Virus record (IMG/VR): IMGVR_UViG_3300043399_000013
Span: 1-26,338 of that record
Length of the DNA stretch: 26,338 nt
Reading direction: 5' to 3' (one strand)
Origin: a virus
Lineage: Duplodnaviria > Caudoviricetes
Shown here: piece after piece, positions 1-25,842 of the stretch
How the letters are laid out: the number at the start of each line of letters is the position of its first letter
How positions within the stretch are numbered: position 1 is the stretch's first letter
The notes under the pieces: generated by a model
The model's database searches: none
Told to the model about the DNA's origin: nothing
What the model saw: the letters and a program-made list of their open reading frames with translations, nothing else
Program-made: the position numbers and the translations under genes

Positions 1-3000
1 CTTGATCCAACATATCTAATGTTGCCAGTGTCTTAGGATCAACCTTTCCTAATTCTATATCCACAAGCAGACTTGCTTTAATTTGATCTTCGTTCATTTC
101 TGGAAACATTGCCTTAAAATTTGGATCAAACTTTACTTCATTCTGATAGGCTGCTTGCTGTTGTACTACATATTGAGGCTTTCCTCCTGGAGTAATTGAC
201 CTATATGCCAATACACCATTTGCCATTAATCTGTTTCTTGTTTCCTGTGACAATTCCTCCGGTTTCACTGCGGCAGCCTGTACTTCTCTGGCAAGTTTAG
301 TGTCAGAAATTGCTCTATTTACTGCTCCTTCTAAATCCATTATTCCAGTTGCCTCTTCAACTGCACCAAATCCAGCGGTGAATTTTTGATCAACATTTCC
401 TCCACCTGTATACATATTAATTGCACGTTGCCTTCGATCTGCCTCTTCCCTAGCCCTTCTTTCTTCTAATGCTTTTTTGTTTGCTTGTGCTTCTTTGATA
501 TCTGACGTATACCCAGCCTTTTTCTTTTTGTCATCTTCTAAGCCTCTTTTTTCCTTAAGTCGTGCAATAAGAATATCTTGTCTAGATATTTCGTCATCGA
601 TTGCAGTTAATATTTGCTTTGTATTTTCTAAATAAGCATTTGCTCTGGCTATATCTGCCTCAATCATTGCATCCATTTCGCCAGAATATAGAATCCCAAG
701 TCCAAGAAAGTTGTCTGTCCAAGAATTTGTCGCTTGCTTAGCGGCTCTTTCTGAACTGACTGTTAGTTCATTGTTCGTTTGATCAATGGAATTTATTAAA
801 TTGTCTATTACCTTTAATGGATCTTTTGATAAATTTTGACCATTTGGACCAACAATTTGTTCTACCTTTGTAATAATTGGAATTGCCATTTCTGGTTTTC
901 CAAGTGCTTCGGTAAGTCCAACAACGATTGCTTTTGCTTGTTTTGGATTTACCGCTCCGCTAACTATCAGTCTACCAATTTGTGATGCAAGATTGTTTCC
1001 AAATGTTGTTCCTCCTTTTTCTAAAGAAACTTTCATTTCTTCAAGCATCGCTTTTCCTGGTTCAGTTTTTACAAATTCTGCGCCCATCTGTTGTTCTTTG
1101 GTTGTAAGACCAATATTCTTTTGTATGTCTTTTGCTCTTCTACGGCTTGCAAGAGTAGTTCTTCCAAAAAGTGCTGCAATATCATTTTGTTCTTTTGTTG
1201 ATATAGTAAGTGCATCTGCATATTTTTTTCCAGCATCTATAGTGTTGTCCATACCCTTTTTCAGTGTCCACGCCGTTATAGCGAGCGCAGCAAATGCCGC
1301 CGCCACCCCTCCAGTTACTGCTATTGCGCCGCCAGCACCAATTGATCCTAATGCACCAAGGCCAGGTAGTTTGCTAAGTCCTGCGGTAAATGCCTTTGAC
1401 ATTGCTCCCGTTCTTGTCACTGCCTTTTCACCATTTGGCAAAGCCCTATACCCAAACCCTGGTCCACCGTATTTTGCTGATTTACCCACCGCGCCACGAA
1501 TTCCACCAACAAGCGGCTGTGCAATCATTTGTGCTCCAATCATTGCCATGAATGGGTCCATTCCAAGGAATTTTCCTTGTTCATCTTTTGGACCAACCAT
1601 TGGAGCCAACGCCAATAGTCCAGCACCACCCATCATTGCTTTTGTTTTACGAGCATATGCTTCTCTTTTTGCTGCCGCTTCTCTTTCTGCTAGTATTTTT
1701 GCATTACTTTGCCTTTCAACAATTCCCATTTGTCTTCCAGCAATTATTTGAGCCTGCTCACTAGTCAAACTTGGTCTACGAGCCATAATTCTATTAGCCC
1801 TCTGTTCCAACTGTCTAGAAAGTCTTTCTTGTTTTCTTGTTTCAAGATTTGCTCTACGTTCTGCTGTAGTTCCCCTCATTGGGACTGCGATTCTTTTTGA
1901 TAATTCGGCACCAACGGTTTTTGCATTTGGCTTTTCTCCAGTCAATACACCATTTCGCCAATCTGTCATTGCTCTTTTATATGCAGAATTTGACATTCTT
2001 TTTGCAGCAGTTATTGCTTGTCTTTCGGTCATTCCTGGATATTTTTCCATTAATTGTCTAGCAAGAAGATCTGATGATCTAACAGACTGTCGAACACTTG
2101 TTGTTGCGGTTGTCCTTGTTGCTTGAGCCTCAAAGGCTGAAAAAGATGTTGTTCTCAATGATGGATTTTTACCAACATTTTCTCTATAATATTTTTGTGC
2201 TTCTGCTCCAGCAATAAACTGTCCACCAGTTTTAATAAACTTTCTTTGCTGTGTTTTACTAAGTTGACCTAATTCTTTTTGATATGCTGCTGTATTTGTT
2301 GATAATTCATTAAATGCTTTTGCCAATAATTGATTTTGCTTATAAGTAAGTTTACTTCCTTTTGAAAGACTTTCCATAAGTTTTGGAACAGATGCTTGTG
2401 CTTTTGCGTCTTTTTTAGTTATATTAAAAAGTGCTTTTTGAATTGCATCTCTTTTTATTTGTGCAGCCTTAATTTGATTTTCATGACCAACTCCAGTTAC
2501 CCTTGGATCTGAAAGACTTTGTGCAATATTATTAAATGCTTGTGCCTGTGGTGGAACACTTTTAACATCTTGAAATGATGTCTTCATTCCAGGTCTTTGT
2601 TCTAAATGACCTCCAGCGACTGGTATGTCTCTTGCAGAATATCCTGCACGAACCATTGCTTGCTGGACATACATTTCTTCTGCTAGTTGAGCACGAAGCA
2701 TTGCAGCCCTTCTTGGATCTTTCTTTTCAAGTGATGCTAGGGTTTGAAGCCACGGTACCTTTCTTCCACTAGCGCCAACTCTTCCGCTTGGTTCTGGAAC
2801 CCCTCCCTCTCCAGTTCCAAAAGCAAATCCTGGAAGAGTCCCGTTATTCATTGCACTAATGATTGAGCCATATTTTTGCGTTGCTTTTTTAGTGATGACA
2901 GATTCCCCAGGTGTCAGGAGTGCTGGCACTGTATCTGAATTTCCCACACCTGGAACAGTTCCTCCAGTTGCAAAGGGTTGTAATGTTTTTGTTTGAAGAA

Positions 3001-6000
3001 TTGGCAAGCCAGTTTTTGGATCTATAGAAACTCCAGTTACCATCATTTTTGAGCCACTGGCGATAAATTCTTGTTCATGAGAAACATCTCTTCCCATATA
3101 TGTTCCACCAGGATTAGCCTTGTTTACATTAATCATTGGATGGCCAGCACCAAATGACTGTTCAATTAGAAGATTTCTATATCCCTTTGGAGCAAGACTC
3201 TTTATCTCTTTTCCAAGCATTCCTCTACCATTTTTGGCTGTTTCAATATATTGCTTGGTTTCTGCTATCCTTCTTTTTATTGCATCTATTGTTATCTGAC
3301 TTGCCCCAGATGTCTCGTATCTTGCCAACTCTTCTTCATATCTCTTAAGTCTAGATATATTGTTTCTATATGATTTTCTATCTATCCTAGTTTGTTGCTT
3401 AAGAAATTCAATTCTGTTTACGTCTGAATTTGATGAAAGTGCCCCATACGTTCCAGAAATTCCTGCTGAAGTATAAGATATTGGTCCCTTTGCCGTAAGT
3501 GTCTTTCCTATAAGACCTTCAAGGTTTCCATTTTTTAATGCCTCAAAGATCATTGCTTCGTCTTGTGGAATAAATTCGCTTCCCCTTGATAGTCCAAGTG
3601 TTGTAGATCTGTGAAGTTTCATATTCTTTCGTGTTGGCTTCATTCCAGACATAATTGCAAAAAGCATTTCTGGCGTTTCTCTAACCTGTCGTGAACTTGT
3701 TTGCCATGTACGAAGAGATTGCTGCAAACCAACAACACCGCCAGCAAATTCTCTTGGCCCATATTGTTCTAATAATCTTGAAGAAGACTTAAGTGCTTGA
3801 ACGCTAGAACCAGTAGCAATTTCTCCAAATAAGATTTCGTCAATTGACCCGTATGTTTGACGAATTCTTGTATTCAGTATTTGTGCTGCTTTGCTTGCTA
3901 CTTGCATTGCTATATTTTCTGGAACACCTCTTGACATAAGCATTTGCAAAACTGAAATCATGTCTCTTCCAGATACTGGCTTCCAGTCATTTGCCGTTGC
4001 CTTTTTTAGCGAATTTGGCGCAATAAGTTTATTCCAATTTTCATCAATGAGGATGTATTGTGATGGAAGAACGTCATGGTATCTTTGTGGATTTAGTTTT
4101 CTACCAGACTGTCCTGGAATATCTCTTCCCAGTAGTCTTGGGGAAGATCCAGTTGTTCCTACTCCACCAAATCTTTGATAAAACTCTTTAGAATAAATAT
4201 GACCAACAACTTTACCTGCCTTTACTCTAGTTCTTCCTGCTAACTTAGATACTTCTGGAAGATACCCATATCCCTCCTGCCATGCTGCACCCCTTGATCC
4301 GCTTTGTCTTTCAAGTATATTGTATCCAAGTGCTCCTGGTTCTTTTACTACTCTAGAAGATGGTCTAATGTTTGGCATTATTGCTCTTGCCCCACCGACC
4401 TTTGTAGTTATTGATTTAAATAGGTTTACCCACCCACTATTAAATCCTGGCAAAGTTCCGTTATTCATTTGATGAAGAATTGGAGCGTATTTCTTAGTAG
4501 CCTCTTTAGTAATAACACTTTCTCCAGGGGTAAGAAGGGCTGGAATCGTATCTTTATTTCCAGTGCCGGGAACAGTTCCACCCTCTGCAAAACGCATTCT
4601 TGCATTTGGAAGATTTCTTTTTCCTGTCCTGCCACCAGTCGCTACACCACCCATTGCCGTTCCAGCAACTCCTGCTGCTGTTACAAATCTTTCATATTCT
4701 GTAGTAAGCGCACTAACAGCACCCTTTTGTAGCAATAATGATCTTGTAAGTTTTCCAGAACTTCCTTCTAACGCCATTGTTGCAGAATTGGCTAGTAGTT
4801 CTGTTTCTGTAAGAAACTCAAATTGTGAACTTGTTCCCTTAAGTCTTGCGCCTAACTTTCTCCACCACTCAACACCCTTAATAACGTTAGCAATAAGGTT
4901 TCCCATCAAACCGATTCCCATAAGCAATACTGGGCCAATTCCTGCAATTGCAGCAGTTGCAACTGCCATAGCATTCTTTACGCCATCTGGAAGATTATTG
5001 AATGCATCTGCTACCTTTGATACAAGGTTGATTATTGGTGTAATAGCCTTAAGGAATGCCTCTCCAAGAGGGGCGATGGAAATCTTTAACTTTTCTAATG
5101 CTGCCTGGAATTTAACAGTTGTTGACTCTGATACCTTGCTAAGTTCTTTGTTGGCAATATTTGCAAGATCTTGAGCAGACATAGTGGCAAGATCCATTGC
5201 TCTTGCCGCCTGACTAGACTGCTTAGTAATGTTTGTAAAAAGTGCAGACATTCTTGCATACTGATACTTTCCAAATACTTTTTCTAATGCCTGCTGTCTT
5301 TCAAAAGATCCTAATTTGTTTAGTTCTGCTCCAAAGGCACGAATGGTTCCAAGAAGGTCTCCCTTATTAGCCTGGACAATTCCATTCATATCTATGCCAA
5401 GTTTTGCCAATGCTTGCTGAGCAGCCCTAGTTGGATTAATCATTGATGCTAGACCTGACTTAAGAGCGTTAGCAGCATTTTCTGCACTTACCCCGCCTTC
5501 GCGCATTGCCGTCATCATTACGGCAAGATCTTCAACATCTCCACCAAGTCCTTTGATTACAGTCGCTACGCGAGGAATTGCAAGAGACATATCCTCCATA
5601 GTAAGAATTGTTTGGTTTTCAACAGCGTTTAGATAATCAATCTTTTCACCTAACTTGTCATTACTTATGCCAAATGCTGTTTGTAAAGAAATTGTTGTAT
5701 CAAGTGCATTATTGTAATCCATTTGGCCAAGAGTGGCAAACCTTAGTGTTTGTTCTGTTGCAGCAAGGAGGCTTTCATTTTTTGCACCAGTTGCAGCGGC
5801 ACGAGCAGATATATCTATAGTATCTTTGACAGATATTCCATATTTAGTGTATTCTGCACCAAGTCTTTTAACTGCATCAACGTTTCTGTCTAATTCTTGT
5901 GTTGTGGTGCTAAGATCACCATAGACTCTTGACAATGCAACTGTAGCCTTATCAAGTTCCATAAATGCCTTAGCCGCTGCGGCACCAAATGCTGCCATTG

Positions 6001-6574
6001 GCAGAGTAAGACCAACCATAAGTTGTCTTCCTGCCCACTGTGTATTCTTACCCCAGTTAAGCAATTTGGTTGATCCATCAGAAAGCAACTTATTGAATAG
6101 AACTTGCTTTTGTGTTGCTACTGCAATGTCTGTCGCATATCCCTGTGCTAATCCTCTTGGCATTATTTGGAGTGCCTGCTGAGTATTCTTTGCAGATTTT
6201 CCAAGGGCAACGTATTGAGACTGTATTTTCTTAACTCTGCTGACGGCAACTTTCTCCATCATGTCAAACTCTGATCTGAATACTTTACCCAGACCAGGAA
6301 GTTGAGATGCTGTTAAACGAGCGTATTGTCCAAGCGAGAGTTTATTGTTCTCAATTGCTCTAGAAAATCTTTCAACACTTGTTGTTGCTGGAACTATTTG
6401 TGCATCAAACATTCTTGTGGCATTAATGCCACGAGACAGCATTTGCCCATATCCAGCATCAGATATGGCTAATGATTTATTGAATGCAGATATTTGATTT
6501 TGTAATTTAAGTAATTGAGCCTGTGCCTGACTAGTATTAATACCTATATTAATATTCGCATTAACATCAGCCAT
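1..6574 (-). CDS. Tape measure protein (>2190 aa, 3' end outside window) with internal cargo domains
   Basis: ATG at 6574 preceded by AGGTGA; begins MADVNANINIGINTSQAQAQLLKLQNQ. No stop in the stretches translated by hand (N-terminus, parts of 6070-4860, all of 4620-1260, left edge: ...DPKTLATLDMLDQ), all in one frame. TP901-type TMP core around 6070-5100 (WAGRQLMVGLTLP...AMREGGVSAENAANALKSGLASMINPT). Hydrophobic segments at ~4890-4970 and ~1260-1640. Lies directly after the frameshifted chaperone. Confidence 0.95.
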   Translation of the reverse strand, partial: MADVNANINIGINTSQAQAQLLKLQNQISAFNKSLAISDAGYGQMLSRGINATRMFDAQIVPATTSVERFSRAIENNKLSLGQYARLTASQLPGLGKVFRSEFDMMEKVAVSRVKKIQSQYVALGKSAKNTQQALQIMPRGLAQGYATDIAVATQKQVLFNKLLSDGSTKLLNWGKNTQWAGRQLMVGLTLPMAAFGAAAAKAFMELDKATVALSRVYGDLSTTTQELDRNVDAVKRLGAEYTKYGISVKDTIDISARAAATGAKNESLLAATEQTLRFATLGQMDYNNALDTTISLQTAFGISNDKLGEKIDYLNAVENQTILTMEDMSLAIPRVATVIKGLGGDVEDLAVMMTAMREGGVSAENAANALKSGLASMINPTRAAQQALAKLGIDMNGIVQANKGDLLGTIRAFGAELNKLGSFERQQALEKVFGKYQYARMSALFTNITKQSSQAARAMDLATMSAQDLANIANKELSKVSESTTVKFQAALEKLKISIAPLGEAFLKAITPIINLVSKVADAFNNLPDGVKNAMAVATAAIAGIGPVLLMGIGLMGNLIANVIKGVEWWRKLGARLKGTSSQFEFLTETELLANSATMALEGSSGKLTRSLLLQKGAVSALTTEYERFVTAAGVAGTAMGGVATGGRTGKRNLPNARMRFAEGGTVPGTGNKDTIPALLTPGESVITKEATKKYAPILHQMNNGTLPGFNSGWVNLFKSITTKVGGARAIMPNIRPSSRVVKEPGALGYNILERQSGSRGAAWQEGYGYLPEVSKLAGRTRVKAGKVVGHIYSKEFYQRFGGVGTTGSSPRLLGRDIPGQSGRKLNPQRYHDVLPSQYILIDENWNKLIAPNSLKKATANDWKPVSGRDMISVLQMLMSRGVPENIAMQVASKAAQILNTRIRQTYGSIDEILFGEIATGSSVQALKSSSRLLEQYGPREFAGGVVGLQQSLRTWQTSSRQVRETPEMLFAIMSGMKPTRKNMKLHRSTTLGLSRGSEFIPQDEAMIFEALKNGNLEGLIGKTLTAKGPISYTSAGISGTYGALSSNSDVNRIEFLKQQTRIDRKSYRNNISRLKRYEEELARYETSGASQITIDAIKRRIAETKQYIETAKNGRGMLGKEIKSLAPKGYRNLLIEQSFGAGHPMINVNKANPGGTYMGRDVSHEQEFIASGSKMMVTGVSIDPKTGLPILQTKTLQPFATGGTVPGVGNSDTVPALLTPGESVITKKATQKYGSIISAMNNGTLPGFAFGTGEGGVPEPSGRVGASGRKVPWLQTLASLEKKDPRRAAMLRAQLAEEMYVQQAMVRAGYSARDIPVAGGHLEQRPGMKTSFQDVKSVPPQAQAFNNIAQSLSDPRVTGVGHENQIKAAQIKRDAIQKALFNITKKDAKAQASVPKLMESLSKGSKLTYKQNQLLAKAFNELSTNTAAYQKELGQLSKTQQRKFIKTGGQFIAGAEAQKYYRENVGKNPSLRTTSFSAFEAQATRTTATTSVRQSVRSSDLLARQLMEKYPGMTERQAITAAKRMSNSAYKRAMTDWRNGVLTGEKPNAKTVGAELSKRIAVPMRGTTAERRANLETRKQERLSRQLEQRANRIMARRPSLTSEQAQIIAGRQMGIVERQSNAKILAEREAAAKREAYARKTKAMMGGAGLLALAPMVGPKDEQGKFLGMDPFMAMIGAQMIAQPLVGGIRGAVGKSAKYGGPGFGYRALPNGEKAVTRTGAMSKAFTAGLSKLPGLGALGSIGAGGAIAVTGGVAAAFAALAITAWTLKKGMDNTIDAGKKYADALTISTKEQNDIAALFGRTTLASRRRAKDIQKNIGLTTKEQQMGAEFVKTEPGKAMLEEMKVSLEKGGTTFGNNLASQIGRLIVSGAVNPKQAKAIVVGLTEALGKPEMAIPIITKVEQIVGPNGQNLSKDPLKVIDNLINSIDQTNNELTVSSERAAKQATNSWTDNFLGLGILYSGEMDAMIEADIARANAYLENTKQILTAIDDEISRQDILIARLKEKRGLEDDKKKKAGYTSDIKEAQANKKALEERRAREEADRRQRAINMYTGGGNVDQKFTAGFGAVEEATGIMDLEGAVNRAISDTKLAREVQAAAVKPEELSQETRNRLMANGVLAYRSITPGGKPQYVVQQQAAYQNEVKFDPNFKAMFPEMNEDQIKASLLVDIELGKVDPKTLATLDMLDQ
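2825..2974 (-). repeat. 50-aa internal TMP module, copy 2 (aa 1201-1250)
   Basis: FATGGTVPGVGNSDTVPALLTPGESVITKKATQKYGSIISAMNNGTLPGF; 39/50 identical to copy 1 by manual alignment. Confidence 0.95.
2978..3736 (-). other. Putative ADP-ribosyltransferase domain (R-S-ExE, VIP2/C2/Alt-like) embedded in the TMP
   Basis: Motifs in canonical order: MKLHRST (Arg at 3610-3608), IGKTLTAKGPISYTS (3478-3467), strand NLLIEQSFGAGHPMINV, SHEQEFIASGSKMMVTGV (EQE at 3076-3068). Confidence 0.75.
4442..4591 (-). repeat. 50-aa internal TMP module, copy 1 (aa 662-711)
   Basis: FAEGGTVPGTGNKDTIPALLTPGESVITKEATKKYAPILHQMNNGTLPGF. Confidence 0.95.
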
Positions 6575-6601: not shown

Positions 6602-7293
6602 TTACCATGAGGGATTCTCAAGACTTTTTGCGTCTGTATATTCAAGACCCAGGCCAATACCAAATCCCGCTTGTTGAGCGTTTACTCCTTGCAAAGATAC
6701 GATGTCCGATGCATCCTTTGCCTGACCACCACTAAATACCCTTGCCTTTATATCGTCAAAGGTAGTTCCTGGCTTTTCTCCCGGCTCTTCAAGATTTATC
6801 CCCTGCATAGCAGCAAGAAACTTATTATGATTAAATTCCTTTTCTCTTGAAGCGCCAAGTATTGCTGTAATTTCTGGCATAGAAAGGTTAGCCTCTAATT
6901 CTTCAAAATCTTTCCAGATTCCAAGAAGGAATATCTCAGATTCTAATTTGGCGAGATCTAGTTCTGACCAGGAAGATCCGCCATCTGATCGTTTCCCTCG
7001 GCGTCCAACTTGATGCCAGATGCTGCCTCTATAACCTTATAAACCATTTTAATGTCAGCAACATCTTCAAATTTATCACGATCTGATGCAAGGTCTGGGG
7101 CATATTGCTGCATAGCAATCATTGCACACTCTACTAGAACATCCATTGATTCAACATTGTTTGTAGCAACATCAACCACTGTATCAAACTTCTTCATAAA
7201 ATCACGAAGAAGAGAAATTTTAAGTGGACGCATCTTCAATTTCGTTCCGTCCATAAGTTCTATATCTATTGTTTCATAAACTGTTGTAGCCAT
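6602..7293 (-). CDS. Tail assembly chaperone, long -1 frameshifted form (gpGT-like, ~230 aa)
   Basis: After G GGA AAC the -1 frame is open: RSDGGSSWSELDLAKLESEIFLLGIWKDFEELEANLSMPEITAIL..., joining ORF 6602..6880 in frame. Located between tail tube and TMP. Confidence 0.85.
6958..7293 (-). CDS. Tail assembly chaperone, short form (gpG-like, 111 aa)
   Basis: Start reassigned to ATG 7293 (MATTVYET...) with AAAGGGA upstream; the longer track start at 7362 runs through a terminator. Canonical position after the tail tube gene. Confidence 0.85.
   Translation of the reverse strand: MATTVYETIDIELMDGTKLKMRPLKISLLRDFMKKFDTVVDVATNNVESMDVLVECAMIAMQQYAPDLASDRDKFEDVADIKMVYKVIEAASGIKLDAEGNDQMADLPGQN
6991..6997 (-). 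promoter_or_regulatory. -1 programmed ribosomal frameshift heptamer GGGAAAC
   Basis: X XXY YYZ pattern in the correct phase (GAG GGA AAC), 10 codons before the TAG of the short chaperone. Confidence 0.88.
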
Positions 7294-7325
7294 TTCATTC
7301 CCTTTCTTGATAGCCATATGCGTAT

Positions 7326-7334
7326 AGTATATCA
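7326..7334 (-). promoter_or_regulatory. Extended -10 promoter (TGATATACT) for the chaperone
   Basis: One mismatch to TGnTATAAT, intergenic, directly downstream of the terminator. Confidence 0.6.
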
Positions 7335-7338
7335 TGAC

Positions 7339-7360
7339 AAAAGCCCCGCCGAAGCGGGGC
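7339..7360 (-). terminator. Intrinsic terminator after the major tail gene
   Basis: GCCCCGC-TTCG-GCGGGGC-TTTT: perfect 7-bp GC stem, UUCG tetraloop, short U tract. Confidence 0.88.
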
Positions 7361-7388
7361 AATTGCCTATTAAGTTGTTATTTGATTA

Positions 7389-16311: not shown

Positions 16312-19300
16312 TTATGCAGGTTTGCCACTATAAACTGACCACGATACACTATTTATTGCCACTGTTTCTATTTGTGTTAACGAAATTCCAGAATCGTCGT
16401 CAATAACGTTCCTGTTTGTACCAGCATATACATTAAAAATATCTTCAGGTGTACTGATGTAAGACGATGTTCTTCCAATTGCGTATACATCTGACCATTT
16501 CTTTTGTGACCAATCACTCCAAATATAGGTAAGGACACCGCTTCCAACATACGCACCAGTTGCTGAACTTGAAACCTTAAAATTATATTCATCTATTACA
16601 GAATATACGGTTCCCGTAAAGTTATACTGTGAAGGATTGCTTCCAGTTATTTTTACACTCTGCCCTGCGGCGAGTGGGTGTGGAATGGTTGTGGTATACG
16701 TCACATATGTTCCATCTCCTACAGCAGCAGCAATATCATCCTGATACACATTTTCCCAGACGCGAAGACTAATGTCTGTTTGTATTCCAAGCCCTTCAGT
16801 CAAATAATATGAAACATTGTTAAACACAAAGCCTCCTAGAAGACTTATTGCTCCCTCTGTATATTGACTAAAATCAAGACTGCTTGGAAAAACAATGCCA
16901 ATATGATTCCATTCATAATTATTGATGATAGGATTCTTTACATATTTTCCATTCTGATAGAAACTAAATCCAGACAGTTCTTCATATTCTGCTTCAACAA
17001 TTGATGATGACGCCATTGTTATGTTTATTTCACTATCAAAATTATCTGTTGAATCTCCAGCATCTACTGTCTCAGTGAATATTTGAGTTGATGCACTTCC
17101 ACCATCTAAGAATAGTGCATCACCCTTGTTATATAAAGAAAATGTCATTCCAGCATCAGTATTATTAAGAATTAATGACAATGTTCCATCGCTATGCTTT
17201 ATTTCCATTATTGAAACATCTGTATCAGAATCTGATATTTTTCCCAGCATAAAGAATTTTATTGCACCAATAGAGAAGTTATCTGACCCAACCTTGTTTA
17301 TTGGTATAGATATCCTATATTGATTGGATGTTGACGGATTTGTCAATAAATATTTGTTTACCACCTCTATACCAGATTTTTTCGTTGTATATGTATATGG
17401 AGTATTTGTCTTATATATCAAATATGGATTTTTATCTTTATAGTCTAATCCAGATGTTTTTACAATTTCTGGATAAACTTTAGTTCCAAATTTTGTTCCA
17501 ACATATGATCCAGTATTTTGATCATCAACATAATTAAAGTTTTTAGAGGTAATCTCCAGATTTCTAATTTTCAAAGGATTTTTAATAATAGATCTCTGCT
17601 TGATATAAAAATGAACAACCATTGCATAATCTTCAAAGTTTTGATCTTTTGGTGCATATACAATAGTATTGTCTACAAATTCAAACTTTGTGTCATATGG
17701 ATATGTTTCAAGGTCTGCATCTATTACATAATTATCTGGAATTGATTTTGTATAGGTAAAATCAGAAAGTGGCTTGTTTGCTCCATCAGCAATTGACTGA
17801 AATGTAATATAAGATCGAAGAGATGACTTTGGAATGCCCACAGTTTCTGTTGTTCCATTATTCATCTTTAAATCAAAATATGTATTGTATGATGCGTTTA
17901 AATCTGCATATGTTTGATATATAAAAGCATTTCCTAATTCTTCATATGTCCATTGTGCAATTGGGGCATAGGTATAGCCAACATTTACCTGCATTAAGTC
18001 AAGGTCGTAGTAAAGATCTCCATTTTCATCTCTTACATACCCAGCAAATTGTGTAAGTGGAAAATATTCTTCCCATCTTGATGAGACTGATATATCCATG
18101 TAAAACTTGTTATATTCATATTCTGGAATAAGTGTGTAACTTGCAATATGATTAAACAAAAGTTGGAAATTTGTATAATCTGTAAGTCCGTTTGTCATGA
18201 ATACTTCATTGTTTGGATATTCTGCCTCAATCTCCTGGTAATTTATTTGATTGCAGAATCCAACGTCGTAGATCTTTCCTTCAAATGTATTTTGCCCGTT
18301 ACCTCCGATATAAAGTTGAATTGATGATGGTGATGCAAAAAACTGTGAAACTGCATATCCAAAATGTGATCCAGCCTGACTGAAATTTAATCCAACCAGG
18401 GCTTCTTCGCCAATATTGATAATGTCAGAATGTATCTCTTCTCCATTAATGATATACCTAACCTCATCCTCAAAGATGACAATATTAAAACTCGTTCCAG
18501 TAATATTGTTGACAAAACTCATCAATGTTCGTTCTGAAGAAATGTTGCTTTCTATTTCAAATATTCCATAAACTGCAACAACTGGATCTGTTAGGATATT
18601 TAGTGATGGAAAATTAAAATAACAAGATTCTGTATAATTTGTTCCAGTTGTGCTCCACGAAACTGGGTCACTATTAATATCATAAGTAATATTTGGTCTG
18701 AATGTTACAAAGTTTGGATGAGGAACGTCTGGATAATCTAAAGTATTGACAATATAGTTGTCTGAATACCATTCGTATATATCTCTTGATCCAAGATATA
18801 TTGTTGGCAAACTGTAGTTTGGAACTGCAATGTAGTTTCTTGTTGCACTAAGATTGTTAAAATATCCAGCATCCCATCTTGCAATATCTGGATAAATAGT
18901 ATTTGCGCTATATTCTGATGTAGAGAAATCTATTGTTATTGGTGTACCGCCAAAACTGCTATCAAGCGTTTGAACTGATGGGGCACCTTGACCATAAACG
19001 AACCTTTTCTTTGCAACTATCTCAGCAATTTGGTATGGAAAAATAGAAATGGTGTCAATATGAAACATATTGAAAGAAGTGTAAGAATAAACACCCCACC
19101 AATCCTGGGTACTTGGCAAATCAATATTTTCTCTATCATAGGTCATATTTATGACTTCTTCGCCATTTATAAGTAGAGCAACGTTGTTTGAATTAATAAT
19201 AAAATGAACAAGCATTGGACGATACCATTCACCAACGCAGTGTGAGCCAATTTCATTTCCAACAACCAGAGTAATAAAGCCATCCTTTACCCATATTCCA

Positions 19301-20247
19301 TCATTGCTATTAATTGGACCGATAATCTTTTTGGCTACACTTGTTAATGGATCAAGTTTTACCCACATCTCTAATGTATATTGTTTGTTTCTTCCATTTT
19401 CGTACAGCATTCCCTTTCCAGGAAAAATAAAAGATGGCTCATCGGTTCCAGATGGGTATATGTTGGTAGAGTTATTTGTTCCATAAATAATTGGCATAAC
19501 GTCATTTTTTGCCAATAACTTATTTCCCTTAATCAAATAATATCCGTTATTAAAATTAACGCCATATTCATCTGCTGATATTCCCTCCATATCAACAAAA
19601 TCTATTTCGTCTGGCAAAACCTCTCTTGTACTTCCCAAACTTACAAAACAAGTATTCTGTGAATTTTGACCAACAGAGAGTCCATTCATAATAACTGTTC
19701 TTTCTGATGCTGTTGATGTTGCATCAAAATCAACCATTATTATTAGTTTTATGTATCCAGTCCAGTTGTCTGGTATCTCATACACTTGATTAAAGTTTAA
19801 CCATGATGATATTGTTGCTGGACTGATTGGATCAGACAATATTGTTTGAGTTCCAAGGGTGGCATGAGTGTATTGATAGCCAAACTTAAACCAATTAACA
19901 TAAGTTGGCTGATGATACAGCCAGAAATTTACACAAAATGTTGTAATTTCGGTATCTATATCTGATAACTGAAATGTGTTTGAACTTATTGCAGTAATGG
20001 TTCCTGCTGTACCGCTACTTTTTTCTAACGAAGAATAGATACTGTCTGGAAAGTCTGCTGGTTCATCTGGAATCGTTGGACTATTGCTTGCTGTACATGC
20101 TGTAAGAGTCCAGTTGGTGAATTTTCTATCATTGTCGTCAATGAGACTGAGATAAAACGCATCCTCGTCTAATGACCATAGAGCAATCGGATGCTCTTCA
20201 TAAACCTTTGTGGCATATTGATTTCCAGCATCCGTATTGATACCCAT
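16312..20247 (-). CDS. Large minor virion / tail protein with LamG (ConA-like) domain
   Basis: 1311 aa, beta-rich. N-terminal YATKVYEEHPIALWSLDE and LamG-like YTLEMWVKL...WYRPMLVHF...LLINGEEV. Exact role inferred. Confidence 0.65.
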   Translation of the reverse strand: MGINTDAGNQYATKVYEEHPIALWSLDEDAFYLSLIDDNDRKFTNWTLTACTASNSPTIPDEPADFPDSIYSSLEKSSGTAGTITAISSNTFQLSDIDTEITTFCVNFWLYHQPTYVNWFKFGYQYTHATLGTQTILSDPISPATISSWLNFNQVYEIPDNWTGYIKLIIMVDFDATSTASERTVIMNGLSVGQNSQNTCFVSLGSTREVLPDEIDFVDMEGISADEYGVNFNNGYYLIKGNKLLAKNDVMPIIYGTNNSTNIYPSGTDEPSFIFPGKGMLYENGRNKQYTLEMWVKLDPLTSVAKKIIGPINSNDGIWVKDGFITLVVGNEIGSHCVGEWYRPMLVHFIINSNNVALLINGEEVINMTYDRENIDLPSTQDWWGVYSYTSFNMFHIDTISIFPYQIAEIVAKKRFVYGQGAPSVQTLDSSFGGTPITIDFSTSEYSANTIYPDIARWDAGYFNNLSATRNYIAVPNYSLPTIYLGSRDIYEWYSDNYIVNTLDYPDVPHPNFVTFRPNITYDINSDPVSWSTTGTNYTESCYFNFPSLNILTDPVVAVYGIFEIESNISSERTLMSFVNNITGTSFNIVIFEDEVRYIINGEEIHSDIINIGEEALVGLNFSQAGSHFGYAVSQFFASPSSIQLYIGGNGQNTFEGKIYDVGFCNQINYQEIEAEYPNNEVFMTNGLTDYTNFQLLFNHIASYTLIPEYEYNKFYMDISVSSRWEEYFPLTQFAGYVRDENGDLYYDLDLMQVNVGYTYAPIAQWTYEELGNAFIYQTYADLNASYNTYFDLKMNNGTTETVGIPKSSLRSYITFQSIADGANKPLSDFTYTKSIPDNYVIDADLETYPYDTKFEFVDNTIVYAPKDQNFEDYAMVVHFYIKQRSIIKNPLKIRNLEITSKNFNYVDDQNTGSYVGTKFGTKVYPEIVKTSGLDYKDKNPYLIYKTNTPYTYTTKKSGIEVVNKYLLTNPSTSNQYRISIPINKVGSDNFSIGAIKFFMLGKISDSDTDVSIMEIKHSDGTLSLILNNTDAGMTFSLYNKGDALFLDGGSASTQIFTETVDAGDSTDNFDSEINITMASSSIVEAEYEELSGFSFYQNGKYVKNPIINNYEWNHIGIVFPSSLDFSQYTEGAISLLGGFVFNNVSYYLTEGLGIQTDISLRVWENVYQDDIAAAVGDGTYVTYTTTIPHPLAAGQSVKITGSNPSQYNFTGTVYSVIDEYNFKVSSSATGAYVGSGVLTYIWSDWSQKKWSDVYAIGRTSSYISTPEDIFNVYAGTNRNVIDDDSGISLTQIETVAINSVSWSVYSGKPA

Positions 20248-20325: not shown

Positions 20326-22293
20326 TTATGACACTCTTGATAACTGATCAACAGTAACATCTACATCGCATCCAAATCCATCACCAGATGCAACACATGC
20401 TAACTCCTGTGAGCCAGTAGTCCCATCCTCCAACTCATACAGGGGCAGAGATTGCCATGGAATATCCTTAGGCATAGCGGCCTTCGCTGCCTCATACTCC
20501 TCTTTGCTAATTGGCTGATATGGTGCTTGCTTATAAACGTGATCAGAGGCTGGAAGGAATGAAATTCCTCCGACATGATCAAAGTTGTCAAATACCCATG
20601 CAGCAACGTCCATCCATTCATCTTCCTTAATATTAATAGTAACTGATGGATTATGCTCTGTCCAGTTCTGACGATATACCTTCCAAATTTCAAGGTGTTC
20701 TATAGCAGACAAATCGCTTGTTACAACTGCGCCCTCTGGGGCGGCAATTGGAAATGAAAATACTGTAGAACTATTATTCATTACGTCTGGCTCATTTGGA
20801 ACGCCAAAGTCCTTGAGAAATTGTGTTAGAGGATCTTTATTGTCTGCACGAACAGTGCGAATGTAATACTGTGAGTACCAAGGGTGAATACCGCTTGATA
20901 CGCCAGTCAACTGAGAAACAGTTCCAGATGGCTTAACTGTAGTAACAGCAACAGAGTGCTCAATACCAAGAATGTCTGCCTCAATGGCATTCTCTCCAAC
21001 AGCGAGTTCTCTGAGTGAGTCAAGCATATTTGGAAGATTCTTATGAAGTGTTCCAGTTAGCGGATTGCCAAAAATACCAGTAAGAGATACACCAAGTAGT
21101 CGTTCCTCTTCCGTATTATCCTTCCAGGTCTTACGAATATACTTAAAATTGCTGAGTGTTGATTGCCATGTTCCAAGAATTGCGGCAACCTGAACCTTAT
21201 CGGCAAGAGTTTCGTATGTATCGTCACCAGAGATCACAACCTCTGTTAGATTACAGAACTGGTTTGGACGAAGTAGGATTTCTCCGCATGGATTTGTTCC
21301 CATTACCTTGCTTGAGTCACGACGACCAAACTTGTCAATGTGCTTACGAACAGAATCCATATTGTAGATACCACGCTCGCCAGACTTTGACTCATAAAGA
21401 TTGCGCCATTCACGAAGGAACTGGGCAGTATTTGGCTTCATGTTGTATACCGCTGAATTATTGGCAAGGGCACGATGTGGTTGATCCATCCACCATTGTC
21501 CACTCTTTGCCTTAGCCATCTCAAAGTCATCTAGATTAGAAAGACTAATGAGGGCTGAGCGACGAACACCGCCAACAACAATGACTTCTGCTACCTTGCA
21601 CATAAGGTCATGAGCCTCAACTGGCTTTAGTCTGCGGCCCTTAGCATTCTTAAATGTTTCTACTGCAAACTTGAACAGTTGATTGAGTGGCTCTGGACCT
21701 GAAGCACGACCACCAAATGTCTTGAGGCGGGCACCAGCAGGACGAACCTTGCTCATATCCCAGTTTGGAACCTGTCCCATTGCAAGAAGAGCAAGAAGTT
21801 CCTTGAATGCCTTTGCCCAACCCAACTTGCTATCCTCAACAATAATGACGGTATTGCTTGGATACAGTTCTTCAGCAATGATAGGAAGTTGATCGATATA
21901 CTTTTGCTCAACTGAGAAACCAACCCCTGTACCGTTCATCAAAATATACATAGCCTCATCAAAGGCACGAAGACTATCTACAGCAATAAAAGAGCAGTTG
22001 TAAGCAGCAATATTGTCTCTTTCCAATGCTGGCCCAGCGGTCATCATAGCACGCATTGAAGGCATAACATTGTGATTGAGAATTGCTTCACGGACACGGG
22101 CAAACTTAATGTCATTCTCATCATAGTTATAGTTCTTCACAAGATGATTCTTCATGAATGTCATGTAACGATCTACAGTCTCTACCCAAGTCTCCCTTCT
22201 ACCTTTTTCTTCCATCCATCTACTGTACTTGGAGATATGGATAAAATTTCTGTACGGATCTGTAATTGATCCGTTGTCGTCAATAAATGACAT
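20326..22293 (-). CDS. nrdJ: Class II adenosylcobalamin-dependent ribonucleotide reductase (monomeric RTPR-like), 655 aa
   Basis: Motifs RRETW, PSMRAM, YNCSF, GTGVGFS, GGVRRSA, TNPCGEI, CNLTE, VKPSGT and a C-terminal Cys pair; no beta-subunit gene adjacent. Start reassigned to ATG 22293 (MSFIDDNG), downstream of the promoter. Confidence 0.93.
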   Translation of the reverse strand: MSFIDDNGSITDPYRNFIHISKYSRWMEEKGRRETWVETVDRYMTFMKNHLVKNYNYDENDIKFARVREAILNHNVMPSMRAMMTAGPALERDNIAAYNCSFIAVDSLRAFDEAMYILMNGTGVGFSVEQKYIDQLPIIAEELYPSNTVIIVEDSKLGWAKAFKELLALLAMGQVPNWDMSKVRPAGARLKTFGGRASGPEPLNQLFKFAVETFKNAKGRRLKPVEAHDLMCKVAEVIVVGGVRRSALISLSNLDDFEMAKAKSGQWWMDQPHRALANNSAVYNMKPNTAQFLREWRNLYESKSGERGIYNMDSVRKHIDKFGRRDSSKVMGTNPCGEILLRPNQFCNLTEVVISGDDTYETLADKVQVAAILGTWQSTLSNFKYIRKTWKDNTEEERLLGVSLTGIFGNPLTGTLHKNLPNMLDSLRELAVGENAIEADILGIEHSVAVTTVKPSGTVSQLTGVSSGIHPWYSQYYIRTVRADNKDPLTQFLKDFGVPNEPDVMNNSSTVFSFPIAAPEGAVVTSDLSAIEHLEIWKVYRQNWTEHNPSVTINIKEDEWMDVAAWVFDNFDHVGGISFLPASDHVYKQAPYQPISKEEYEAAKAAMPKDIPWQSLPLYELEDGTTGSQELACVASGDGFGCDVDVTVDQLSRVS

Positions 22294-22327
22294 ATGAACA
22301 CCATCCCTAGAAAAAATTATAGACTTC

Positions 22328-22336
22328 ATTGTATCA
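22328..22336 (-). promoter_or_regulatory. Extended -10 (TGATACAAT) for nrdJ
   Basis: One mismatch to consensus, 34 nt upstream of the ATG at 22293. Confidence 0.62.
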
Positions 22337-22375
22337 ACTTTTATGCCTATCCGCAATACGGATAGAGGAAAAGTT
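22336..22375 (-). terminator. Interrupted inverted repeat; possible terminator or operator
   Basis: AACTTTT..CTATCCG-5 nt-CGGATAG..AAAAGTT between the fibre gene and the nrdJ promoter; no U tract after the stem on the minus strand. Confidence 0.45.
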
Positions 22376-22408: not shown

Positions 22409-23572
22409 TTACATTGCGCCAAGCAAAAATGATGGAACAAAGTCTGTTGTGGCAGTAGCAGACGAAGCAATAGTAATACTTCCAGAAGTCTTTGTCAAGG
22501 TTATATTTGTTCCAGCCTTGATATCTACTGTCTTTGAAGCAGATCCATTAAAGGTATAAAGATCTGTTCCCTCTGTTGTTCCACTATCAAACTTAAGGGA
22601 AAGAGGATTGGTTGTTGTTCCACCGCCTGCTGCAAGTGGGCCAACAGTTGAACCATTTACCTGAACATACATTCCTGCGGTAGTTGTCCAAACATCTCCA
22701 TTGTTGGGTGCAGTTGGCGCAGTGCCGTGGGCAACATTTAAACTTGCAGCACTAGTAGTAGAAGCAGTAAGAGAAAGAAATGCAGTTGGAGATGTTACGC
22801 CAATGCCAACATATCCAGTATTATCTATTCTTACTCTTTCTAATCTGGTTGCCGTTCCAGTTGTAGTTGTAAAAAATGATAGATATGTTCCATTGGCAGT
22901 ATCTGTCCATGTTTCTGATGCCCGTGCGGCAATCAATGCACGACCAGAATCTATCCATTGAGTAGCACCATAACCCCTAAAGTTTACTCCACCCAAATAA
23001 TCATTTGCCTGTGTTGCTGTTGGAGAACTTGCTGTTCCTCTGCTTTTATAAAGTACCAAGTCTGATCCAGTAGTTGCAGCATTAGATCTTCTTGTAATAA
23101 ATCCATCATTTGCGCTAAAGGCAATTTCTAATGGTGCAGTTGGTGATGTTGTTCCAATTCCCACATTACCGCTTGCAGAGACAACAAATGGCGTACTATC
23201 GGGATTTGTGTCATCTTCTACTACTAGGGCATTTCCTGCACCGACTTGAGTAATTCTTAATGCATTAGTAGCAGAATTTGCTAAAATGATTCCAGTTCCG
23301 TTTACTGTGATACCCGCAAAACTTGGCGAGGCAGTAGATTGAAGATCCTGACTAAGAGACATGCTCATTTTGCCAGTAGTGTCATTATAAGTTGGAGTTC
23401 CTAGGCCATTATTAAATGTACCCCCCGTCCACATTGCAGCAGACTTGTCTTCAATGATTTCCTGAAGATCTGTATCGATTTTTGTGGCTAAGTTTTGAAT
23501 ATCTACAGCAACATTTACTGGATCAGTATTTTGCGGGTAAGGCAAAGCGTAATTTGATGTTGTGCTGGCCAT
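22409..23572 (-). CDS. Tail fibre-like virion protein
   Basis: 387 aa, T/S/G/A-rich. Two shaft repeats, GNVGIGTTSPTAPL and GYVGIGVTSPTAFL; N-terminal TTSNYALPYP...D...VAVDIQNLA attachment-type segment. Confidence 0.72.
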   Translation of the reverse strand: MASTTSNYALPYPQNTDPVNVAVDIQNLATKIDTDLQEIIEDKSAAMWTGGTFNNGLGTPTYNDTTGKMSMSLSQDLQSTASPSFAGITVNGTGIILANSATNALRITQVGAGNALVVEDDTNPDSTPFVVSASGNVGIGTTSPTAPLEIAFSANDGFITRRSNAATTGSDLVLYKSRGTASSPTATQANDYLGGVNFRGYGATQWIDSGRALIAARASETWTDTANGTYLSFFTTTTGTATRLERVRIDNTGYVGIGVTSPTAFLSLTASTTSAASLNVAHGTAPTAPNNGDVWTTTAGMYVQVNGSTVGPLAAGGGTTTNPLSLKFDSGTTEGTDLYTFNGSASKTVDIKAGTNITLTKTSGSITIASSATATTDFVPSFLLGAM

Positions 23573-23578
23573 AATTTA

Positions 23579-23587
23579 ATTATATCA
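23579..23587 (-). promoter_or_regulatory. Extended -10 (TGATATAAT), leaderless configuration
   Basis: Its TGA is the stop codon of the upstream gene; 6 nt separate it from the ATG at 23572. Confidence 0.7.
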
Positions 23588-23842
23588 CTCGGATGATTGA
23601 GATGGATCGACAAACATATTTCCGTCCCAAGTCCATCCTATTCCTGGGTATGGTCCACGATATTGTCCAGCGATTGGATTACCGCTATATGAGCACTGAA
23701 CCCAGATTCCGCCTATGAGTTCTGAAAGAAACTGTTGCCCTAAGGATTCTTGTTCGATACCATTATCGTCGGTAATAACATCGTTATTTACAACAACAAC
23801 TTGCTTAACAAATCCATTTTCTACTTCTGCGAAATGTGCCAT
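23585..23842 (-). CDS. Small phage protein (MAHFA-type) following the Gly-rich gene
   Basis: 85 aa, GGAG SD. MAHFAE...VKQVVVV...WVQCSY...YPGIGWTWD pattern; function unknown. Confidence 0.78.
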   Translation of the reverse strand: MAHFAEVENGFVKQVVVVNNDVITDDNGIEQESLGQQFLSELIGGIWVQCSYSGNPIAGQYRGPYPGIGWTWDGNMFVDPSQSSE

Positions 23843-23850
23843 ATTATCTC

Positions 23851-24738
23851 CTAACTAATCACCACAACAACATATCCAGAGCCACCAGCACCACCGTTAC
23901 TTTGTGATGCATCGCCATGACCCCCGCCCCCGCCACCACCGCCTGTATTTATCGTTCCCGCTGTTCCGACTGCATTTGCACCGCCTGCACCGCCGCCGCC
24001 CGTGCCGCCTGTTCCTGCTGTAGCAAAATAAGATCCACCTCCGCCTCCTCCAGCAAATGTTAAAGAACTTCCCGTAATTGTATTTGTTGAACCATTTCCA
24101 CCATTTCCACCAGTTGTGCTCGTTACACTTTGTCCTACTCCACCAGCCCCTCCTCCACCAGCACCAGGTCCATCTCCTCCGACACGAGTGCTTGTTCCTC
24201 CATTATTTCCTAGTCCAACAGAACCCAAACCAGCATTTGTACCATTTCCTCCACCAGCACATCCTCCTCCAGATCCTCCTCCAGATGGTGGCACAGAATA
24301 ATAATATACATTTGCGCCACCTCCACCTCCTGGAATAATAATATCGCCAAGTCTAGAAACAGTTCCATGCCTTGAATTTGCTGCTCCCCCACCACCCACA
24401 GTTACAGTTAGTACTCCACTTTGCAAATAAGTATTAGATGAATACCAATAGCCGCCACCGCCACCACCGCCGCCCGATGCAGCCGTTGCTAGTCCAGAAC
24501 CACCTCCTCCGCCTCCAGCAACAATAAGAACTTCTGCATATCCAGGATTATCAATAGTAATTGAACCAGATCCAGTAAATTTATAAATAGTAAATCCTGG
24601 ACGAGAAGATGTATCGATAGTTGGAGATCCGGTGGTCGTAGAAGCCTTTGCTTTACCAGCGCCATTATTAATATTTGATAACGACTTTGTTTTAGAAATT
24701 CCGCCAAGGCCAGAAGTCTTAGCAGTTGTTAGAGACAT
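23851..24738 (-). CDS. Glycine-rich domain virion protein (fibre/receptor-binding accessory)
   Basis: 295 aa. YKFTGSGS...EVLIVAGGGGGG...AGGGGGG...NTGGGGGG...GGAGGSGYVVV pattern. Confidence 0.8.
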   Translation of the reverse strand: MSLTTAKTSGLGGISKTKSLSNINNGAGKAKASTTTGSPTIDTSSRPGFTIYKFTGSGSITIDNPGYAEVLIVAGGGGGGSGLATAASGGGGGGGGYWYSSNTYLQSGVLTVTVGGGGAANSRHGTVSRLGDIIIPGGGGGANVYYYSVPPSGGGSGGGCAGGGNGTNAGLGSVGLGNNGGTSTRVGGDGPGAGGGGAGGVGQSVTSTTGGNGGNGSTNTITGSSLTFAGGGGGGSYFATAGTGGTGGGGAGGANAVGTAGTINTGGGGGGGGHGDASQSNGGAGGSGYVVVVIS

Positions 24739-25082
24739 TATGTATTCTCCACGCCATAGGCACTAAAGTTTACTTCGTTACTTGATGAAGATACATTAAG
24801 GTACCTATTTGTTGGATCAAGAACGAGTCCAAGTGTTAGGGTGACTGTATCATTTGGAGCAATGGTTGCCTGAAATACGATATATCGACCAGCAGCATAG
24901 GTTGCGGAGGCAGTGTTGATAGCAATTGTATATGTTCTTGCTGTTGTTCCAGCATTACATACAACAATGCTTGAGATAATTGTGCTTGTACCCGCTGTAC
25001 CGCTGGCGGCATAAAGTTGTGCAGCAGTTCCAATTGTTCCGCTGCCTGCTGCTGCTCCTAGTTGCTTATATGTTGCTGGCAT
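24738..25082 (-). CDS. Small beta-rich putative virion structural protein
   Basis: 114 aa, GGAGG SD. YKQLG...IISSIVVCN...VNFSAYGVE; coupled to the Gly-rich gene. Confidence 0.75.
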   Translation of the reverse strand: MPATYKQLGAAAGSGTIGTAAQLYAASGTAGTSTIISSIVVCNAGTTARTYTIAINTASATYAAGRYIVFQATIAPNDTVTLTLGLVLDPTNRYLNVSSSSNEVNFSAYGVENT

Positions 25083-25099
25083 TTTATTCCTCCAAGATA

Positions 25100-25108
25100 A
25101 TTATATCA
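25100..25108 (-). promoter_or_regulatory. Extended -10 (TGATATAAT)
   Basis: Exact consensus immediately after the upstream TGA stop, followed by GGAGG and the ATG at 25082. Confidence 0.7.
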
Positions 25109-25348
25109 TCACCATTTATCTAATGGACACTTAGCATCTCGTATCCATGTTTTTGCCGACATCCAGCATCCACATTCAGAGCAGCAGTTAACTTGTTCAA
25201 GTTTTTCACATGAAAGACAGACTTCCATTCTTATTTTTCTTATATCTGAATCAATTTTTTCGATATCTTCACTTATTAGGTTAAATGGAAGAACCTGTTT
25301 TTTGTCAATAAAGTATGCTGGAGCATCTAAAACTTCATCATATATCAT
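25109..25348 (-). CDS. Small Cys-rich putative metal-binding protein (DUF6171-like)
   Basis: 79 aa from the ATGA-overlap start; RMEVCLSCE...CCSECGCWMSAKTWIRDAKCPLDKW. Confidence 0.72.
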   Translation of the reverse strand: MIYDEVLDAPAYFIDKKQVLPFNLISEDIEKIDSDIRKIRMEVCLSCEKLEQVNCCSECGCWMSAKTWIRDAKCPLDKW

Positions 25349-25842
25349 GCAACTTTCCACCACTCATTATATGAATCAGTATATCCTGATGGTGTTGAGT
25401 TCTTTCTATTGATTATATCGGTATGCTGACAGTTATATCCAGTATCTAAACATGCATATCCAGATGCACCATTTGGTCCAGTTCCATAGTTTAGGTACCC
25501 CTCACATGCCCCTGGCGTAGCATTAATCCAATCATGCTGATAACTGTTTACACTTTCAACATAAAACGTATATGCTTTTCTTTCTGCGGTGGCAGATGGA
25601 GAATTGTTTACACCCTTGGTTAATTTTGCAGTAACGATACAGATTGAATTTGCATTTGATAGGGTAATAATGTCAGCGGATCTTGTTGCTGTACCCGACG
25701 TTACAGAAAGATTATAAATTAATGTTGAATCATAGTTTGTAATTCTAAATTGACCAGTAGTTGTATGATGAGTAAGTGTTGGTTTTGCTGGTACCGCTCC
25801 AAGTCCAGCCCCTGCTGTAGCAAAAAAGGCTAACCTACTCAT
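25345..25842 (-). CDS. Hypothetical protein, probably fibre-associated
   Basis: 165 aa with ATGA overlaps at both ends; T-rich beta N-terminal half, Cys/Tyr-rich C-terminal half. Confidence 0.68.
   Translation of the reverse strand: MSRLAFFATAGAGLGAVPAKPTLTHHTTTGQFRITNYDSTLIYNLSVTSGTATRSADIITLSNANSICIVTAKLTKGVNNSPSATAERKAYTFYVESVNSYQHDWINATPGACEGYLNYGTGPNGASGYACLDTGYNCQHTDIINRKNSTPSGYTDSYNEWWKVA

Follow-up and report, generated by a model that had tools for sequence, protein, structure and literature searches.

A predicted ADP-ribosyltransferase cassette in the variable cargo zone of a siphophage tape measure protein

The 26,338-nucleotide stretch analyzed here, positions 1 to 26,338 of the IMG/VR virus record IMGVR_UViG_3300043399_000013 (hereafter the window), covers the structural genes of an uncultured tailed phage: portal, protease, capsid and tail genes and a long minus-strand open reading frame (ORF), ORF 6574-2, that encodes the tape measure protein (TMP). 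Inside this TMP lies a domain with the predicted fold and the R-S-ExE signature of an ADP-ribosyltransferase (ART), and comparison with related TMPs places it in a variable, repeat-fenced array of swappable cassettes. We lean towards the reading that the ART, being part of the TMP, is carried in the tail in unfolded form, reaches the cytoplasm, and there ADP-ribosylates an arginine of a host protein in the manner of T4 Alt.

An R-S-ExE cassette inside the tape measure protein

The TMP lies at 2..6574 (-); the window end cuts the ORF, leaving aa 1-2191 of 3157, and a full-length, identical protein of 3157 aa (P0003) is encoded on a 47.4-kb viral contig (L001). A Pfam search matched PF10145 at aa 233-435 (E 8e-30), the only Pfam family found in P0003, and PHROG TMP families also match the ORF. 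Together with its place after the tail tube and chaperone genes and before the distal tail genes, the profile match identifies it as a siphophage TMP.

The ART cassette occupies 2978..3736 (-), which reads stop-free as aa 947-1199. A first-pass annotation, made from the letters of the window, had placed the catalytic signature at R989, S1033 and E1167-Q-E1169, and translation of the ORF bears out both motifs and numbering: the strand-1 arginine R989 is encoded at 3608..3610 (-), S1033-Y1034-T1035, the counterpart of the STS motif, at 3470..3478 (-), and E1167-Q-E1169 at 3068..3076 (-). Among 16 aligned cassettes, an alignment that leaves out one partial second copy, nine columns are invariant, including R989, Y1034, E1167 and E1169. 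The S motif falls in a predicted strand and position 1035 is T or S in 16/16; S1033 itself is not strictly kept, being Ser in 13/16 and Ala in 3/16. If columns were random, the chance of R989, E1167 and E1169 all being invariant would be ~3e-5, a figure to be read alongside the fact that the matches were found by a profile holding these columns. A loose R..S-aromatic-S/T..ExE pattern, written from this ART family itself, matched 0 of 351 253-aa windows of the TMP backbone.

Of 1.84 billion proteins searched by profile, 14 matched and 13 of these were new; ten of the new ones have the TMP N-terminus and three are fragments with the TMP repeat, so that all lie in TMPs or TMP fragments. No break in the reading frame of the ART is seen in TMPs that share 37-77% identity in their backbones. 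Its base composition (GC content 0.376; 0.229 at third codon positions, GC3) is not distinct from that of the backbone, and there is therefore no sign of recent import. A scan of the viral collection for the ART found three loci, and an alignment-based metagenome scan yielded 215 pattern matches, none of them confirmed. A contig from a freshwater sequencing run spans the domain with 0 differences; the run probably represents the source sample, which is of freshwater origin, and hence is not independent. No contig joint skipping the cassette was found in two runs of one sample, and the data sets listed as containing the sequence include no RNA set. We regard the cassette as a confirmed, real feature of this TMP.

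The predicted fold is that of an ADP-ribosyltransferase

An AlphaFold2 model of the domain (input: six homologues, 46-50% identical) has a mean predicted local distance difference test score (pLDDT) of 78.3. Its strands contain the arginine (model residues 39-47), the serine (86-89) and E1169 (221-225) in the order typical of ARTs; behind the S motif, the model has an insertion of two long helices (model 104-181). The Foldseek comparison that the first-pass annotation had proposed as a check supports its assignment: 53 PDB matches were obtained at E<=0.001 (best E 2.6e-5), and among the matches listed, 33/33 are ARTs of the C3, VIP2, CDTa, Plx2A, Certhrax or C3larvin types. In the viral library, the seven matches at E<=0.001 comprise three VIP2-like proteins, one "putative structural protein" and three unnamed proteins, the top named matches being VIP2-like proteins of Mycobacterium and Gordonia phages. 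VIA-align superposes model residues 7-253 on CDTa (6x6w) with Z 10.5 and a root-mean-square deviation of 3.4 over 139 residues, and this superposition implies that R, S and E would meet on one cleft for nicotinamide adenine dinucleotide (NAD). The nearest clusters in the Atlas carry PF03496 on 20% and 92% of their members, which we take as a lead only. The domain shows these hallmarks of the R-S-E ART superfamily: a core fold (as predicted), an arginine in strand 1, S-x-S/T in strand 2, for which we infer the register of S1033-Y-T1035 against STS, and the ExE glutamate in strand 5. With model, Foldseek, CDTa alignment and conservation (R989, E1167 and E1169 each in 16/16) pointing the same way, the ART fold is predicted with high confidence, and the predicted enzyme is probably competent for catalysis.

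The inserted helices, which the first-pass annotation had overlooked along with the fencing repeats, form a hairpin of ~80 residues (aa ~1050-1127; 3194..3427, -) between the S motif and ExE. Lysine and arginine outnumber aspartate and glutamate in this stretch in 14/16 aligned homologues, and the basic hairpin could be a target-binding arm that aims the enzyme. The same net charge suits an alternative, that a delivered, active enzyme of ART fold acts on nucleic acid or mainly hydrolyzes NAD+: there are members of the R-S-E class that modify RNA or DNA, or that act on NAD alone, and the cassettes found nearby include a HAD of PNKP-like flavour (a weak match) and His..Asn nuclease-like modules. 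However, ExE, the pattern of arginine-specific ARTs, is invariant in 16/16 and the structural neighbours are protein-modifying toxins. We therefore consider action on nucleic acid or NAD+ unlikely, and an arginine of a protein the rather more likely target.

The predicted ART belongs to a variable array of cassettes

The domain had been described as a lone insert, a description that has to be given up in favour of a repeat-fenced array. This TMP family occurs in roughly 1200 viral stretches. When about half of the viral collection was scanned with the N-terminal part of the TMP, 594 relatives were confirmed; of the best 80 of these 594, 72 have a definable cargo zone, running from the first repeat to the downstream hydrophobic segment. 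Adding 14 proteins found via the ART gave a comparison set of 86 TMPs, which is not dereplicated and includes some incomplete proteins. The zone measures 151-1523 aa in the 62 complete TMPs and exceeds 3100 aa in one incomplete protein (L004).

Among the 72 locus TMPs, this ART is present in two, any R-S-E-like ART in ten and any ART-like cassette in eleven, next to kinase-like cassettes (21), HAD (3), HIGH nucleotidyltransferase (NTase)-like cassettes (3) and an H..W..D..N module (37). HAD is the sole type to score above the Pfam cut-off. The kinase-like cassette was recognized by its K, E, DxD..N and DxG motifs; no Pfam match and no meaningful PDB match was found for it, and the nearest named Atlas cluster is HipA_2, on 21% of members, a lead. 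The NTase-like call combines a HIGH-like motif with sub-threshold NCBIfam matches. Other ART types were recognized by motifs, by eye, and a common origin of the types A, B and C is not supported by hhalign (probabilities <=10.7).

The order of cassettes varies, with the kinase before or after the H..W..D..N (HxN) module and the ART before or after the kinase. On a quick backbone tree (IQ-TREE, 60 rows), the presence of this ART needs eight gains or losses, at least five of them forced by the starred branches; it is also clustered, since shuffled presence requires a mean of 14.2 changes versus 8. L004, which is without this ART, groups tightly with the ART-bearing L006 and P0005, and L065 and L066 have near-identical backbones with very different cargo.

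Two further cassettes flank the ART in the window. Cassette 1 (3749..4432, -; aa 715-942) has a GH...N motif recognized by eye and, among the 86 TMPs, recurs in P0005 alone. Cassette 3 (2264..2695, -; aa ~1294-1437) is a weak member of the H..W..D..N module (leave-one-out E 4.8e-4), which occurs in 46/86 TMP zones without any family match and in which H and N are invariant in 26/26 rows. By motif it may be His-Me-nuclease-like; its best fold match has Z 5.3, and the region around the His is modelled at pLDDT<50.

Several other zones were recorded in the course of this comparison. The kinase-like cassette is the commonest enzyme cargo (L036:11664-12500 and 20 other loci). The TMP of L004 (L004:11672-20986), with its zone of more than 3100 aa, contains six internal repeats and, by eye, kinase-like, HIGH NTase-like, further R-S-E-like ART, two H-type ART-like and GNAT-like cassettes. 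In L003 (11518-12120), a HIGH-motif NTase-like cassette with weak NadM-type NCBIfam matches sits beside ART-like cassettes, possibly for NAD supply or manipulation. P0018 carries, at aa 1760-2153, a tandem pair of one cassette that is GNAT-like by eye.

Repeats and candidate cut sites border the cassettes

A repeat of ~53 aa fences the array. Copy 1 (4433..4591, -; aa 662-714) starts with F-A-E-G-G, and copy 2 (2816..2974, -; aa 1201-1253), 70% identical to it in nucleotides, starts with F-A-T-G-G directly after the ART; a third copy lies ~116 aa before the TMP C-terminus. At the N-end of the ART, a degenerate linker, F943-A-G-G, is encoded at 3737..3748 (-). The repeats alone matched when aa 662-1425 were searched against cultured phages with tblastn, and the repeat profile finds the TMP of mycobacteriophage Douge twice and that of JBD30 once. 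A cut at 1066 in the JBD30 TMP is given only as a prediction in its source paper.

The start of the repeat resembles the mapped cut site of the T5 TMP, pb2, which is cleaved after R1127 (PMC10038345); in the pb2 sequence record, A-E-G-G follows this residue. An initial idea that the repeat corresponds to a T5 "hook" upstream of the cut was dropped, as the T5 cut precedes A-E-G-G; by the same token, the repeat would begin the downstream fragment. In 60 dereplicated TMPs, an xAxGG motif precedes 87/131 repeats. The motif occurs within 65 aa of cassette ends on the N-side in 23/40 cases and on the C-side in 26/40, compared to 7/89 interior windows and 147/1349 backbone windows. Because the motif was picked by eye, this enrichment is suggestive only.

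Proposed delivery and action

As part of the TMP, the ART would be stretched and unfolded in the tail lumen, and its carriage there is likely. In TM4, loss of a 114-aa enzyme motif of the TMP shortens the tail by ~20 nm (PMC1796659), so an enzyme motif counts in tail length; such cargo would accordingly lie extended in the lumen and have to refold after leaving it. At the rate of that study (~0.15 nm per residue), our own arithmetic gives a tail of ~470 nm for the present TMP. The cargo zone is bounded by hydrophobic segments at 4895..4975 (-), from aa 534, and at 1289..1345 (-), from aa 1744, the latter likely membrane-inserting. TMP C-termini are described as sitting at the tail tip and leaving first, and formation of the DNA channel has been ascribed tentatively to hydrophobic segments (PMC10038345, PMC11445458, PMC13033339). 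Lying between the two segments, the cargo zone would exit after the channel-forming part; with the C-terminus leading, the ART would be ejected ahead of the DNA and pass to the cytoplasm behind the segment at aa ~1744, a step that we judge fairly likely. A TMP-borne enzyme is known from P23-45, whose TMP contains an RNA polymerase (PMC10770324).

Cuts at the F|AxGG sites would then free a protein of ~255 aa; otherwise, the ART would stay tethered. Such release is about as likely as not. The same linker motifs on both sides could also serve to cut the cassette out at tail assembly, so that the ART acts late in the producing cell or is packed elsewhere in the particle instead of being ejected through the tail, and TMP processing that removes an internal segment has been described (PMC1796659). 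In T5, though, the cut fragment stays in the tail (PMC10038345), the TM4 motif contributes to tail length, and a late-acting enzyme would gain little from fusion to a TMP. We find excision at assembly improbable and retain tail ejection as the preferred route.

Enzymes using NAD and adenosine triphosphate (ATP) find their substrates only in the cytoplasm, and cargo that depends on NAD+ or ATP is accordingly sensible only there. Once refolded, the ejected ART would transfer ADP-ribose from NAD+ to an arginine residue of some host protein in the phage's favour, most plausibly in the transcription or translation machinery or in a defence protein. The few ART copies per virion would suit takeover rather than killing, and this would explain the missing immunity gene. 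The first-pass annotation had seen no adjacent immunity or hydrolase gene; ADP-ribosylhydrolase and Macro domains were found in 0/5 contigs each (all partial) and in none of the 19 downstream ORFs scanned. The proposal, made in that annotation, of an active, injected ART that modifies a host protein is compatible with this evidence.

The host is likely actinobacterial. The nearest cultured relatives are the Stanwilliamsviridae, siphophages of Streptomyces (Gilson, TunaTartare and kin), with 44% identity in the capsid protein and 32% in the N-terminal part of the TMP, and 4/4 near-complete relatives of 101-106 kb encode WhiB. Such a host, the freshwater sample and the VIP2/CDTa-like fold also accord with a "Trojan horse" toxin of actin type directed at grazing protists, a role suggested for the VIP2-like genes that freshwater phages carry (PMC6802176). 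In the present case, however, the domain is part of a protein of the tail lumen and has kinase-, HAD- and NTase-like cassettes for company, the 19 downstream ORFs scanned include no partner for binding or translocation, and the gene set of that study, as its text defines it, is based on PF03496, which the domain does not match. A grazer toxin is therefore very improbable, and we return to a host protein as the target of a tail-ejected ART.

A number of observations weigh against this reading. Profile searches with the ART were negative: no Pfam family is found at E<=0.1, ADPrib_exo_Tox (PF03496) and Mod_ADP_RT included, so that the hidden Markov model check proposed with the first-pass annotation failed; NCBIfam gives 0 matches and PDB sequence searches only coiled-coil noise, while PHROGs returns just one weak family of unknown function, on the hairpin. 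The model was built on six sequences and is weakest, at pLDDT 57-67, in residues 201-230 around ExE; Foldseek TM-scores to PDB ARTs are low (0.32-0.40 of the query), and the VIA-align lists are dominated by the hairpin, with ARTs in 0/50 rows of the wide search and 1/50 (CDTa) of the second list. To these are added the alanine at S1033 in some homologues and the calling of the other ART-like, kinase-like and NTase-like cassettes from motifs. Of the 72 relatives, 62 are without an R-S-E-like ART, and the ART is therefore dispensable in the TMP family. As for release, the likeness to the T5 cut site covers four residues and position only, T5 pb2 gives no match to the repeat profile at the site of its cut and lambda gpH gives a weak one (E 8e-4, ~120 aa from the gpH end), the linker motif was chosen by eye, the window ART's own N-side linker is one residue short of AxGG, and the motif is missing from the N side of 6/16 and the C side of 5/16 ART cassettes. 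No WhiB is encoded on the phage's own contig, which is 44% complete.

Some of these points would also fit a domain that is catalytically dead or nearly so, either an NAD-binding decoy or a relic kept as length filler: the contexts of the R and STS motifs are divergent, Ser is replaced by Ala in 3/16, the insertion is large, profile matches are absent, and ART presence among TMPs is patchy. A relic of this kind would not be expected to hold R and both Glu within just nine invariant positions, nor to keep its frame across backbones as diverged as those above, and we regard a dead domain as improbable, preferring an active enzyme.

Taken one step further, the TMP might be a polyprotein magazine, in which a row of host-attacking enzymes is carried in the tail, cut apart at duplicated T5-type sites and fired into the cytoplasm before the DNA, while recombination between the repeats exchanges cassettes in an arms race against host defences. 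Its cargo, in freshwater actinophages, would be ARTs of several unrelated types, kinases resembling HipA, phosphatases, NAD-pathway nucleotidyltransferases and nucleases. We offer this larger picture tentatively.

Neighbouring genes

The tail gene order around the TMP is that of Gilson. As in that phage, two ORFs in the position of tail assembly chaperones precede the TMP (6602-7362, -), and the next gene after it is a 212-aa ORF in tail position. Elsewhere in the window are a 1311-aa protein without a Pfam match, just upstream of the portal region (16312-20247, -), a class II (B12-type) ribonucleotide reductase among the structural genes (20326-22356, -), and a cluster of glycine-rich and fibre-like ORFs (22409-26075, -) with Gly_rich_2 at 23851-24738. 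At another locus, a phage-encoded DnaE-type polymerase III alpha subunit (L088:5983-9252) lies close to genes for DnaB, a primase and a 2OG-Fe(II) oxygenase.

Comparison with known systems

If the reading is correct, pre-formed host-takeover enzymes would have an added delivery route, through the tail lumen and on the ruler itself; profile searches would be overlooking a pool of ART and kinase domains; and toxin-like ART genes of freshwater phages would have an alternative explanation to grazer defence. It also makes membrane crossing of TMP cargo testable and suggests a natural protein-delivery slot, for example in those relatives that are cultured on Streptomyces.

The literature searched, in which coverage of subscription journals is poor, yielded no description of a TMP that contains an ART. 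The parts of Iyer 2017 (PMC5512222) and Zhang 2012 available as text make no mention of tape measures, and the supplements of the former could bear on novelty. Likewise, "tape" is absent from the consulted text and supplement of Kavagutti 2019 (PMC6802176), where the PF03496 genes listed for 24 freshwater phages are interpreted as toxins against grazers, and the accessible text of PMC7824862 has nothing on TMP fusions.

The closest functional parallels are virion-borne ARTs. T4 Alt is an R-S-E ART of the virion that enters the cell together with the DNA and has the RNA polymerase of the host as its target (PMC5512222, PMC9206674, PMC7302621), and MuF-VIP2 fusions are described in the Microbacterium phages Percival and Goodman and in gp16 of Stenotrophomonas phage AXL1 (PMC9206674, PMC7302621). 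The present cassette shares with T4 Alt/ModA/ModB and MuF-VIP2 an R-S-E ART within a virion protein, but differs from Alt and MuF-VIP2 in its carrier, a tail TMP instead of a head protein, in the ~80-aa hairpin, in the swappable array and in the lack of a sequence match. Residing in a siphophage TMP, it falls outside the T4 Alt/ModA/ModB group of head-packaged or free, T4-like enzymes related in sequence; the comparison of how they work stands.

Among enzyme-bearing TMPs, TM4 gp17 (motif 3), the T5 pb2 C-fragment, which is cut off before A-E-G-G, and the virion RNA polymerase of P23-45 gp96, a TMP-borne enzyme acting in the cytoplasm, share the location of the enzyme domain. These are single fixed domains, mostly cell-wall hydrolases, whereas here several putative host-modifying cassettes that use NAD or ATP turn over between relatives. 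The 2100-aa TMP of Gilson, whose family, the Stanwilliamsviridae, shares the tail gene order, is without an internal cargo zone, ART-A, kinase or HxN cassette and has, by eye, an M23-like peptidase near its C-end.

Polyvalent proteins (PMC5512222) likewise combine unrelated enzymes (ART, kinase, NTase, GNAT) in one chain thought to be delivered at entry, and several unrelated enzymes in one delivered polypeptide are found here at the level of the family, their identities being mostly motif-based. The hallmarks of that class, an H-Y-D ART and MPTase, ArdC-N, LPDs or MuF hubs, are not seen, the ART being of R-S-E type and PF10145 the sole Pfam family in P0003; the same source states that genuine polyvalent proteins contain no ARTs of the R-S-E type. 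Polymorphic toxins, as Zhang 2012 describes them, have a C-terminal toxin and an adjacent immunity gene; the present domain is internal, and the gene next to the TMP is the 212-aa ORF in tail position. The Sle1/Tme effectors of Streptomyces contractile systems (PMC13277306) also pair a TMP-like scaffold with exchangeable domains ejected from a tube lumen; they belong to a bacterial contractile nanomachine and are C-terminal, in contrast to the internal array of a lytic-type siphophage, and ART has 0 occurrences in the text of that paper at hand. Injected ARTs and enzyme-bearing TMPs thus each have precedents, and it is their combination, together with the swappable array, that forms the new element.

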